A stretch of 12,849 nucleotides of DNA from IMG/VR virus record IMGVR_UViG_2654587686_000012; one strand, given 5' to 3'. Shown here piece after piece: positions 9,001 to 12,849 of this stretch. This DNA comes from a virus. Its lineage: Duplodnaviria > Heunggongvirae > Uroviricota > Caudoviricetes. A program made the position numbers. The first letter of the stretch is position 1. The number at the start of each line of letters is the position of its first letter.

Positions 9001-12000
9001 TTTCTTCTTCAACGATGATTTCTGAAACATTCAATATTTCATTAGATTCGTTTTCTTTCTCAGAAGGATCAGGTAGTGATGACTCTCTAGGGGGAGTAAT
9101 ATGTGCATCTGTGAGAGGTAGCGCACGTAATTTTAATGGACGTTTTGGGATTCGTTCTCCGACCTCTTCTAAAAGACCGATTTTAATCATAAGACCAATC
9201 AATTCATTAACTGTCTTACGGCTACAGCCACAAACTTTACTTAACTTCGTTTGTGTTTCAAAACATATCCCCCCTGATTTCTCCCAATCTGAAACATAGC
9301 AATATAATTTTTGCATTTCTGCACTAAACTTCGCTTTTCCATCCTCAATATTTGAGGAGTAGATGAATTCAATCTCACAAAAGTAGTGTGGTATATTCAA
9401 AGTTCGGTCTTTAATTTCTCCTGTTTGTTGATCAACATACTGGTATTTTTCACGAATCAATTTAATTTTAGACATTAGAATTATCTCCTTATAAATCACG
9501 CTTAATGCGCTACTAAAGTGAATGAGGATCACTTACCCTTTTTTTGTTTGATGTTCTCTGCTGCTTCAGTAATGATTTCTAACATCAAATCACTGACCAT
9601 AATTTGCCTTTTCTTGGCTTCAGCAAATAAAATCTTGAAAATTTCAGGGTCAACGTGTAGGTAAGTGCGTGGAATTGGTTTCTTGGTTTCGCTCATAGTT
9701 TTCTCCTTCTCCTGTTATTATTCTTTCTCTGCTCCTGCCTTACGCAGTTCATCAATAATTTTTAGTGCATCGTCAAAACATTTTTCACGCTCTGGATAAC
9801 CACAGCGTCGCGCTGTGTTCCTGTTCATCCTTACTTTAAAACGATTGATCTCACCACGTTTCCAGGCTTCAACTACATCCTGGGGAGTGAAATACTTCAT
9901 TAATTAACCTCCTATTCTATTTGGTTAAAAGAAAAAACACCTTGCAAGCCTTGTTGGGCTTCAAAGTGCGGTGCATTGGTTTAATTACTTAGAGGATAAG
10001 AATGTTTTCTGTCCCTAATATTACTTTACCACGACTAAAAGCTTTTGTCAACCCCTATCCATAAAAATATTGATCATTTTCAGTGTGTTATAATTTTTCT
10101 TAGCAATTCGTGCTCTTACGGGTGCTCCTATTCTTCCTTATTCTCTAAAACGCTCTAAAACGCCCTCTGACGAGGTTTTGATAAATACAATACATTCACT
10201 TATGTAGAGGCTGTTTAGCTCGTCAGAGGCTTATTTAAGGGGCTTATTTTGTATTTGTTAGGTATATGGGAAGATGATGATAGATAAAATCTAATTTCAG
10301 ACATCTTATAAAATACCTGTAAAGCTCCTCAGAAGCTCTATAACGAGCTAATCTATTACCGCTAAGTGTTTCCCTGCCTTATATACGTTTAGCTCGCCTA
10401 CGGCTTGATTTAAGCGGTAGAATCTTATTTAACCTTCAACTACTAAAACCATTCTTTCTTTTTTGTTTGTTGTTGGTTGTTGTCTGTGTCTATGTGCTAA
10501 CATCGCTAACGCGTAGCACACAAGGTTATTGCACTCGTCAGAGTATTGCACAATAGATTTTCTCTTAAATAGATTGATGATCGTTAGATTGGCGTAAGCC
10601 TCATCAATGGAACTATTGAAGCGCACAGCGCAAGACTATTTAGCCTTACGCAAGCCGTAGGCTATTTGCACATAGTAGATTACATATTCGTTGTGAGCGG
10701 CATTAGCGAACATATATCTACTAACTAACATCAACAAACAAAAACTATGTGTTATGACAAGCAGTCTAACGACTAACACTCTAACTTGTGCAAGGTTCTG
10801 GCGAATGCCAATAGATTAAGGGATAGTCAAAGACTTCCTAACGGGTATCCCTATAATTATTCTTATAAAGATAAAAAAGAATTATATTATATAGTTTAAT
10901 AGTTAGTTTTATTATTAGTATTATAGATGTTAGTCTTATTGTGTAACCTTTCGTTACAACCAATCATCTGCCGATGTAACGTATCGTTACTACCGATGTG
11001 TAATATCGTTACATTCAATAATTAGTCTATGTAACGAATCGTTACTACAAAATTTCTTACAGAGAGTATTTCAGATAGCTGAATGTAACCCATCGTTACA
11101 TCCATCGTTACATCCATTTATCACATAACATCTGTGCAATGATCTTCTAAAAGTGTTTCTTACTATCAAAAATTAAACATCTAAAACAGGCTTAAATTCA
11201 ATGTAATTGATGATTAATCCCTGTGTAATTCCTACGTAAAAATTCAATGAAAAGTAGCTTAAAAGTGCAATTCTTACTTTCTTCACTTTTACATCACTTT
11301 CGCAAAGCCTTGTGTAATGCGGCATATAGCGCATCACTGCAAAATTGTTGCTCAATAAACGTTCTATCATTTGTCGAACAAGTTTTCTTTAATGCAACAA
11401 AAAATTATTTTTTCAAAATAAACACACCATTTAATAGCTTGCTAATTTTACCAAAACGTAACTACATGCTTCTCATGCAAGACGTGTAGTGATAAAGCAG
11501 GCTAAATCACCACACTAAAAACCTTCGAATTTCGTAGTGAAAAAAGTCCTTTACACACCTAATCAACACGATCAATAATCACTACACACAAATCAACACA
11601 GAAGGAAAATGAAAATGGCTAATATTGGATACATTAGGGTATCGACTGTGCAACAAAACACAGACCGTCAATTAGCTGGAGTAACTCTTGATAAAGTCTT
11701 TGAAGATAAAGCGTCAGGCAAGAACACTCAGCGCCCACAGTTTGAGGCAATGATGAACTATGTGCGGGAGGGTGACGTGTTACACGTCCATAGTATTGAT
11801 CGCCTTTGTCGTAATACAGCCGACCTTCTGGCAACGGTTGAGCAATTAACAGAGCGCGGCGTGTCTGTGCATTTCCATAAAGAAGACTTTAAGACAGGGA
11901 AGAACTCTCCCGCAGGGAATATGATGCTCACAGTGCTTGCAGCAGTGGCACAAATGGAGCGTGAAATGATGCTTGAGCGGCAACGTGAAGGGATCGCCGC

Positions 12001-12849
12001 AGCTAAGGCCGCTGGGCGTATAGCAAAACGTGGTAATGGAAAAGCAATTGATCGAGCAGGAATTGCTGCCGCTCTCGCGAATGGTGGATCAATTCGGAGC
12101 GTAGCAAAAGATTTCAGTGTCAGTACACAGACGGTGCAACGTATTAAGAAAGAGCAGGAAGCGTAATGCCTCCTGATATTTCAGAATTGTCGCTGCGTGG
12201 ACCTGACGGCGCAAATTTTCGCGTTGAGCGATGATCACGTATGCGCCGATTTCAGAGAAAAAGACAGTAACTAAGCTAGCGGGGAAAGCTGACATTTTTT
12301 TACACTTAGCAAAAAACGGTCAATAAACAACCTCAAGACGCACGCTAAAATTTTAATCATTTGTTTTTTAAAGACATTGAATCTACACCATTCTCTTGAC
12401 GTAGATTCAATTAAGTGAAAGAATGAAAATTGGGTAAATCTACACCACAGAAATAAAGAGTATAATCACTCCAAAAATAAATGGAGTGTTTAACTGTGCG
12501 TAAATTCCTTTACCTCTTATCCAAGACCATCAAACACATTTTTAACATCAACCTACTCAAAATCATCTTCTGGAGCTTATCAGCTTGGTATGCCAACTCC
12601 ACTCTTCAAGAAATTCATTGCATTTTAGAAGTGATTGCTATCGTGACCAGTATGATAAATCAGTCACTCAATAAAGGTATGCTGAAATAATTGGCGATTG
12701 TGAGATTATTGAATGCAATAGGAGCCATAAAGCGCCTTTGATGGGCTACCCCAAAAAATAAGCGCCGTAGGCGTATCCACTAAAAAGGGCTTTTTCACAA
12801 AAGCTATGAAGTCTTAGCAGTTCTTCTCTTATCAGGCACCCGTTGTACT

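Follow-up and report, generated by a model that had tools for sequence, protein, structure and literature searches.

A putative res/resolvase module beside the replication origin of an Escherichia coli genomic island

The IMG/VR virus record IMGVR_UViG_2654587686_000012 (Caudoviricetes; 12,849 nucleotides, the whole of which is called the window below) carries a gene for a small serine recombinase with short repeats on either side. Our analysis indicates that positions 11484-12166 probably constitute a res/resolvase module with a site specificity of its own, situated beside the replication origin of an E. coli genomic island, where the recombinase would resolve multimers and repress its own gene. 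Previously annotated just as a “recombinase family protein”, the recombinase can now be given a putative target and job. It is present in ~5% of complete E. coli genomes, O104:H4 outbreak strains among them.

The recombinase gene and the repeats around it

The features of the module and its immediate surroundings are as follows.

11484..11515, plus strand: res site I, putative crossover site; GTGTAGTGAT, 12-bp spacer AAAGCAGGCTAA, ATCACCACAC; inverted, 32 bp, centre AG at 11499/11500
11533..11570, plus strand: putative res site II, accessory; inverted, with left half CGTAGTGAA (11533-11541) and weak right half AATCAACACG (11561-11570)
11550..11579, plus strand: promoter-like site of the recombinase gene, inside sites II/III; TTTACA, 18 nt, AATAAT, 10/12 matches
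11578..11600, plus strand: putative res site III, accessory; ATCACTACA and ATCAACACA, direct (head-to-tail), 14-bp step, abutting the ribosome-binding site (RBS)
11615..12166, plus strand: small serine recombinase (resolvase), 183 amino acids, N-terminal catalytic domain and C-terminal helix-turn-helix (HTH)
12155..12175, plus strand: hairpin across the recombinase stop codon, followed by ATATTT (called on the minus strand by the scan; plus-strand reading by eye)
12376..12447, plus strand: downstream repeats, outside res, overlapping promoter-like TTGACG, 17 nt, AAGAAT and TCTACA, 16 nt, TATAAT

The recombinase open reading frame (ORF) spans 11609-12166, and its true start is probably the ATG at 11615, because the RBS AGAAGGA (11600-11606) lies too near the ATG at 11609, the relative L004 (compared loci are given by L numbers) is without that ATG, and RefSeq calls the 552-nt version, which yields the 183-amino-acid form. 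Pfam Resolvase (PF00239) matched residues 6-137 with a score of 1e-38 and HTH models covered residues 146-182, bearing out the resolvase-type serine recombinase proposed by an earlier sequence-only reading. The protein has the length (~180-200 amino acids), nucleophilic serine domain and C-terminal HTH that define the small serine recombinases. Its best solved relatives are the Tn3 (2e-27) and gamma-delta (3e-27) resolvases, each 38% identical and each aligning end to end; scores against Gin and Sin were 4.5e-25 and 2.7e-18, respectively. All six residues crucial for catalysis in Tn3 resolvase, Y6, R8, S10, D36, R68 and R71 (PMC2794168), align to identical residues here. Among 19 homologues of 60-80% identity, Y6, R8, S10, R63 and R66 (the last two equivalent to Tn3 R68 and R71) are invariant, and the position of Tn3 D36 is occupied by D or E. 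The hairpin across the stop codon is possibly a weak terminator of the gene.

Directly 5′ of the gene, six half-sites of the word TGTAGTGAT fall within 117 bp (11484-11600), in a cluster that ends at the RBS. Relative to the ATG at 11615 they lie at −130 (+), −109 (−), −82 (+), −54 (−, weak), −37 (−) and −23 (−). AT-rich words of the window led an automatic 9-mer motif finder astray; the half-site word was chosen by eye and then tested. Allowing up to one mismatch, the window has 11 matches to TGTAGTGAT where 3.2 were expected, a count reached in none of 200 shuffles; with up to two mismatches, 6 of the 65 window hits fell in the 180 bp before the ATG (0.9 expected). The related pattern AATCWACAC had four exact matches against 0.26 expected. 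The upstream AATCA(C/A)(C/T)ACAC repeats of the sequence-only reading are indeed there, in a looser form than it had written: AATCACCACAC (11506-11516) and AATCACTACAC (11578-11588) fit exactly, AATCAACACGA (11561) and AATCAACACAG (11591) are degenerate, and the inverted copies GTGTAGTGAT (11484-11493) and CGTAGTGAA (11533-11541) had been overlooked.

Taken as three pairs, the half-sites provide what a res is expected to contain, a candidate crossover site and accessory sites beside the gene. Site I is the putative crossover site by likeness to the res of Tn3/gamma-delta (PMC2428073), and 17 bp separate it from site II. Neither the 12.8-kb window nor the 1985-bp plasmid of a homologue (L090, described below) contains a second half-site cluster or site I-like pair, so that each of these replicons has a single res. 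The promoter-like site sits within sites II/III and has counterparts at the same place in homologues L087, L011, L091, L007 and L090, where inspection by eye found TTGACT/TTGATT/TTGATC, 17 nt and a TATAAT-like hexamer. Because of this position, here and in the homologues, the recombinase likely represses its own gene, as tnpR does.

The closest known counterparts are the transposon resolvases. The res of Tn3/gamma-delta is 114 bp long and binds three dimers at inverted subsites, while that of Sin measures 86 bp and has a head-to-tail repeat as its accessory site II (PMC2428073, PMC9943657). The window module resembles the former in its ~185-amino-acid serine recombinase with C-terminal HTH, in a res directly 5′ of the gene with three subsites over ~115 bp and the putative crossover site distal, and in the placement of the gene promoter within the accessory sites. 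It differs in that it lies in a tRNA-integrating island beside an iteron origin and lacks transposon ends; its neighbours are the origin iterons and small ORFs, and no transposase, which a Tn3-family transposon would require, was found among the ORFs of the window or in a Pfam scan of the large ORFs. Site III is direct and not inverted, the half-site word is TGTAGTGAT, and site I consists of 10-bp arms and a 12-bp spacer, 32 bp in all, whereas that of Tn3 is 28 bp. With the Sin/beta recombinases of staphylococcal plasmids (res/six) the module shares the plasmid multimer resolution envisaged for it and one head-to-tail accessory subsite (PMC2428073). The res of Sin, however, takes two Sin dimers plus HU/IHF in a bent I-II spacer within its 86 bp, whereas the window has three dimer sites over 117 bp with an I-II gap of 17 bp, and the protein match to Sin is weaker; the head-to-tail subsite is all that the two layouts have in common. 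The window site therefore has the subsite number and span of Tn3, with a Sin-like head-to-tail third subsite.

Downstream of the gene, the sequence-only reading correctly described a perfect 11-bp inverted repeat whose arms, ATTGAATCTAC (12376-12386) and GTAGATTCAAT (12401-12411), are 14 bp apart, and a direct repeat, AATCTACACCA, at 12380-12390 and 12437-12447. As recombinase targets, however, they fail the test which that reading had itself set. Among elements whose recombinases are 99% identical, the window type has the inverted repeat, as does the O104:H4 type with another spacer, whereas inverted and direct repeats are both missing from a third type (variant C; L097, L098, L100, L103-L105) and from L004. 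The only close copies of AATCTACACC (up to two mismatches) in the window are the three local ones. The hexamer GTGTAG is common to the downstream repeats and the res half-sites, with opposite orientation to the centre, facing inward in the downstream repeats; in register, 6 of 11 positions match. The downstream repeat was accordingly rejected as a further target of the recombinase. The simplest reading takes these repeats as the promoter/operator region of the next cargo gene; the two promoter-like sites that they overlap are followed by variable DNA. A conserved small gene after the inverted repeat was considered and dropped, as the small downstream ORFs of the window and of L002 have no similarity. 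Upstream and downstream repeats thus do not form one system: of the picture of a recombinase flanked by repeat elements, the upstream repeats do belong to the recombinase, and all recognisable sites lie in that one res-like cluster.

Site layout and specificity in homologues

Homologous genes were gathered from a genome-collection scan (other genera), a contig look-up and a plasmid search. An inverted pair with a 12-bp spacer, at an equal distance from the start codon, is found in L011, L012, L087, L014, L007 and L090, and the site I spacer is 12 bp in all homologues compared. In L011/L012 the half-sites lie at −141/−143, −120/−122, −82/−83, −58/−59, −38/−39 and −24/−25. The right half of site II, weak in the window, is a clear half-site at −58/−59 in both, and likewise by eye in L087. 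The direct site III pair recurs at about −38/−24 in L011 and L012 and, by eye, is also present in L087 and L091. An inverted third pair takes its place in L007-L009 and L090. All six half-sites, in the same order, were recognised by eye in L087 (a 4.5-kb Salmonella contig) and L091 (a 5.8-kb plasmid).

Half-site word and predicted recognition helix of the recombinase change in step:

Helix STQTVQRIK, word TGTAGTGAT: window and L087
Helix STNTISRIK, word TGTAGCGAT: L011 and L012
Helix SLNTVYRVQ, word TGTATCGAT: L091
Helix STRTV(Q/M)NIK, word TGTAGTAA(T): L090, L007 and L008; L009, with the same helix, uses TTGTTGTAA

In L007-L009 the catalytic domain is 87-90% identical to that of the window protein, the C-terminal 43 residues are 50-55% identical and the word differs. 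The catalytic domain of L087 is 68% identical, yet helix and word are shared with the window. This co-variation is the strongest non-experimental evidence that the repeats would be the binding sites of the recombinase. The recombinases of L007-L009 are domain mosaics when set against the window protein, which suggests that DNA-binding domains have been swapped together with res sites between otherwise close recombinases. The helix/word pairs (TGTAGTGAT, TGTAGCGAT, TGTATCGAT, TGTAGTAAT) make up a natural specificity series that could serve as orthogonal recombination tools.

Several homologues reside on plasmids of 2-6 kb. One of these is L090, the circular plasmid pDETEC86 (NZ_CP116175.1, 1985 bp), whose sole annotated gene is a recombinase homologue of 68% identity. 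A res-like site lies 5′ of that gene and the remainder holds many GAGTAACC / AAGTAACC repeats; no recognisable rep gene was present in the plasmid, and Rfam gave no match in it or in the window. Similar circular plasmids of ~2 kb are NZ_AP027492.1 (1952 bp) and NZ_CP130129.1 (2000 bp). Possibly, these ~2-kb plasmids replicate by means of a Rep supplied in trans.

Proposed multimer resolution and competing explanations

The window represents an E. coli genomic island of ~12.5 kb, 99.8% identical to NZ_CP041996, where it adjoins tRNA-Leu. Island variants with different integrases are found at tRNA-Thr in O104:H4 and also at tRNA-Gly, and one copy lies within an IncF plasmid. Three features bear on the setting of the module.

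540-1811: tyrosine integrase
8801-9532: Rep-like HTH protein
10850-11120: replication origin adjoining the module; AT-rich stretch of 17% GC (10850-10949), then GTAAC-N5-GTTAC iterons (10940-11120)

L002, L003 and L004, which have different Rep variants, retain the AT-rich stretch but have another iteron word. Since the word varies with the Rep variant, the GTAAC array consists of origin iterons and is not the recombinase target that had been entertained for it. The origin is modular: the place of GTAAC-N5-GTTAC is taken by GGAAnnCATTTCCTAGG in L002 (13530-13690) and by TAACAnnTTTCTGTnGGGG in L003 (2830-2980).

Multimer resolution, one of several jobs that the sequence-only reading had listed, is the best-supported role of the module, because the module follows the origin iterons, the island has a Rep-like protein and homologues occur on 2-6 kb plasmids. 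On plasmids of that size, multimer resolution is the expected use of such modules. The recombinase would bind as dimers to the three subsites directly 5′ of its own gene. While the excised island replicates from the adjoining origin, or is part of a plasmid, dimers could form through homologous recombination or through replication. Such a dimer would carry two directly repeated res copies on one supercoiled circle, which would synapse through the accessory sites; the recombinase would then cut and exchange strands at the centre of site I, giving monomers. Binding at sites II/III would cover the promoter of the gene and repress it. Binding, crossover point, directionality, multimer substrate and autoregulation are all things that we infer here. 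The pairing of an iteron origin with res supports the notion of plasmid-like circular replication of this tRNA-integrating island after excision.

Several observations weigh against this reading. In the window, the right half of site II departs from the 9-mer word at three positions, and site I has a non-palindromic AG at its centre, where most homologues have AT. Only the iterons and the Rep-like gene speak for circular replication of the excised island. The module is also dispensable accessory cargo, since some islands of this family do without it: L005 and L006 keep the flanks 9918-11390 and 12716-12849 but have unrelated DNA in place of 11391-12715. Finally, comparison of the relatives revealed no mosaic breakpoint in the middle of site I; L006 and L014 break at the outer edge of this site.

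A wider interpretation, which we regard as rather unlikely, takes the whole as an undescribed phage-satellite-like island, in which the res module reduces the multimers formed by replication to circles of unit length, to be packaged or re-integrated, and which exchanges the module, with its specificity matched, with tiny resolvase-only plasmids. The whole island (1-12849) looks like a phage satellite. The traits behind this are the integrase, the Rep-like protein with its iterons, proteins resembling a capsid, a tape measure and Dit (the capsid likeness weak), and patches of DNA in common with lytic Stephanstirmvirinae phages at 95-98% identity. A literature search yielded no described satellite family of this kind and nothing relevant for the protein accessions. 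If the interpretation is true, it would give the module a part in the life cycle that has not been described for satellites.

It is unlikely that the module is a captured plasmid-derived cassette in variable cargo, with no role in the life cycle of the island or serving to fuse or exchange DNA with res-matched islands and plasmids. The replacement of the module by unrelated DNA between kept flanks in L005 and L006 fits a cassette, as do its recurrent boundaries, since relatives share a conserved block with its left edge immediately beyond the variable iterons (11104-11106) and its right edge at 12263-12333. At ~50%, the GC content of the gene exceeds that of its flanks (30-38%); small plasmids carry homologous modules, and the half-site word recurs in L087. 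Yet no small plasmid has nucleotide-level identity to the module; the plasmid collection yielded matches of at least 99% only in the IncF plasmid, which holds the whole island, and in a 4.9-Mb record classed there as a plasmid. The module is not bounded by terminal repeats or target duplications, and a 15-nt inverted pair that brackets it with 14/15 matches (11419-11433 / 12478-12492) corresponds to no observed boundary. A captured cassette would in any case be compatible with resolution activity.

Quite improbable is the proposal that the recombinase is kept solely as a DNA-binding repressor, the six half-sites being operators for its own or neighbouring promoters without any recombination. 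The promoter-like site inside sites II/III would suit such a function, as would an isolated half-site-like word, ATAATCACTCCA (12462-12473), which overlaps the −10 of a downstream promoter-like site. Against it, the invariance of Y6, R8, S10, R63 and R66 in the 19 homologues points to selection for catalysis. The distal site I pair with its conserved 12-bp spacer has no obvious operator use 100 bp 5′ of the promoter, and the homologues on 2-6 kb plasmids fit resolution.

That the protein is a DNA invertase of the Hin/Gin/Pin type, flipping an adjacent segment as a phase switch by crossover at the flanking repeats, is highly improbable. Some features would fit: Hin, Gin, Cin and Pin belong to the same superfamily and size class, the Gin score is near that of the resolvases, repeats occur on either side of the gene, and the best phage-family match is PHROG 125, labelled “DNA invertase” (6e-62); resolvases and invertases are not separable by protein sequence alone. 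Hin/Gin systems, however, have two inverted crossover sites and both orientations in nature. The window contains no second site I-like inverted pair (other half-site matches with up to one mismatch are isolated) and no long inverted repeat pair bracketing a segment that could invert; hix/gix-like AAACC-NN-GGTTT cores are absent from the vicinity of the gene and no more frequent in the window as a whole than chance predicts. The window is fully collinear with each of 16 independent copies, which come from chromosomes, one plasmid and IMG/VR provirus calls; the IMG/VR matches are provirus calls from isolate genomes and are uninformative on packaged or circular forms. In 294 of 5426 complete E. 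coli genomes, 11470-12170 is present as a single collinear block (at least 95% identity), with res and gene in one orientation. The downstream repeat is dispensable, with GTGTAG hexamers that face inward, unlike site I, and a cluster of accessory sites beside a single crossover site is the layout of a resolvase. The inversion switching suggested for this recombinase, as a phase-variable switch, thereby loses its support.

Other features of the island

Further proteins of the island resemble phage proteins. The capsid-like protein matched PHROG 29 (1e-4), the tape-measure-like protein had a match of 4e-31 and the Dit-like protein a Pfam match of 1.8e-27; together these proteins occupy 4854-5885, 2617-4458 and 1892-2569. 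No portal or terminase was recognised among the island proteins, and tblastn of the capsid-like protein against 50,697 phage records returned no match. A defence-system reading of the cargo region was dropped, since PADLOC gave no match for the recombinase or the small neighbouring ORFs.

A patch of 625 bp in the window (9084-9708) matches the lytic Escherichia phage inny at 95.5% identity and, over part of its length, phage muut at 98.7%; both phages are Stephanstirmvirinae. The patch spans the N-terminal 159 amino acids of the Rep-like protein and a 55-amino-acid ORF; in inny, the Rep-like part forms the N-terminus of a longer hypothetical protein. This DNA, common to the island and inny/muut, may reflect a helper-satellite link.

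The left end of the window (98-418) has a 92% match to the tRNA-Leu region of Salmonella records, and the alignment with the nearest E. coli relative begins only at position 327. ARAGORN found no tRNA gene in the window. This end probably represents the attL side and includes an incomplete tRNA copy.

In L005 (3270-4380) and L006 (3133-4430) the DNA that replaces the module comprises ~1 kb without an annotated gene, with tandem TATTTATAGCTATTTATGGCTATTTAT words and repeated CCTTAAATACCC; a 127-amino-acid minus-strand ORF in it had no PADLOC match. The 15-nt pair at 11419-11433 / 12478-12492 (TAAACACACCATTTA / TAAATGGAGTGTTTA), which brackets res and gene, coincides with no module boundary in relatives and may be due to chance. 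The core of its left copy, ACACCATTTAAT, is also found upstream of the L014 module, of unrelated specificity, and in the recombinase-less L006.

An element of ~80 nt (12173-12260; TGATATTT ... GCGTTRAGC ... GCC) directly follows the recombinase stop codon. A structured RNA was considered at this place and rejected, as Rfam gave no match and the 80-nt fold was no better than those of shuffled sequences (z = −1.19). The element is shared with an unannotated region of Klebsiella phage ZCKP1 (Stephanstirmvirinae), and diverged forms of it occur in the recombinase-less L005 and L006 and also in L004. Between the origin and res, the short repeat YTGTGTAAW is present in two copies (11221-11229 and 11310-11318), a number not above chance. 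L014 has three copies (5429-5516), a count reached in 4 of 200 shuffles, and the repeat has GTGTA in common with the res half-site.

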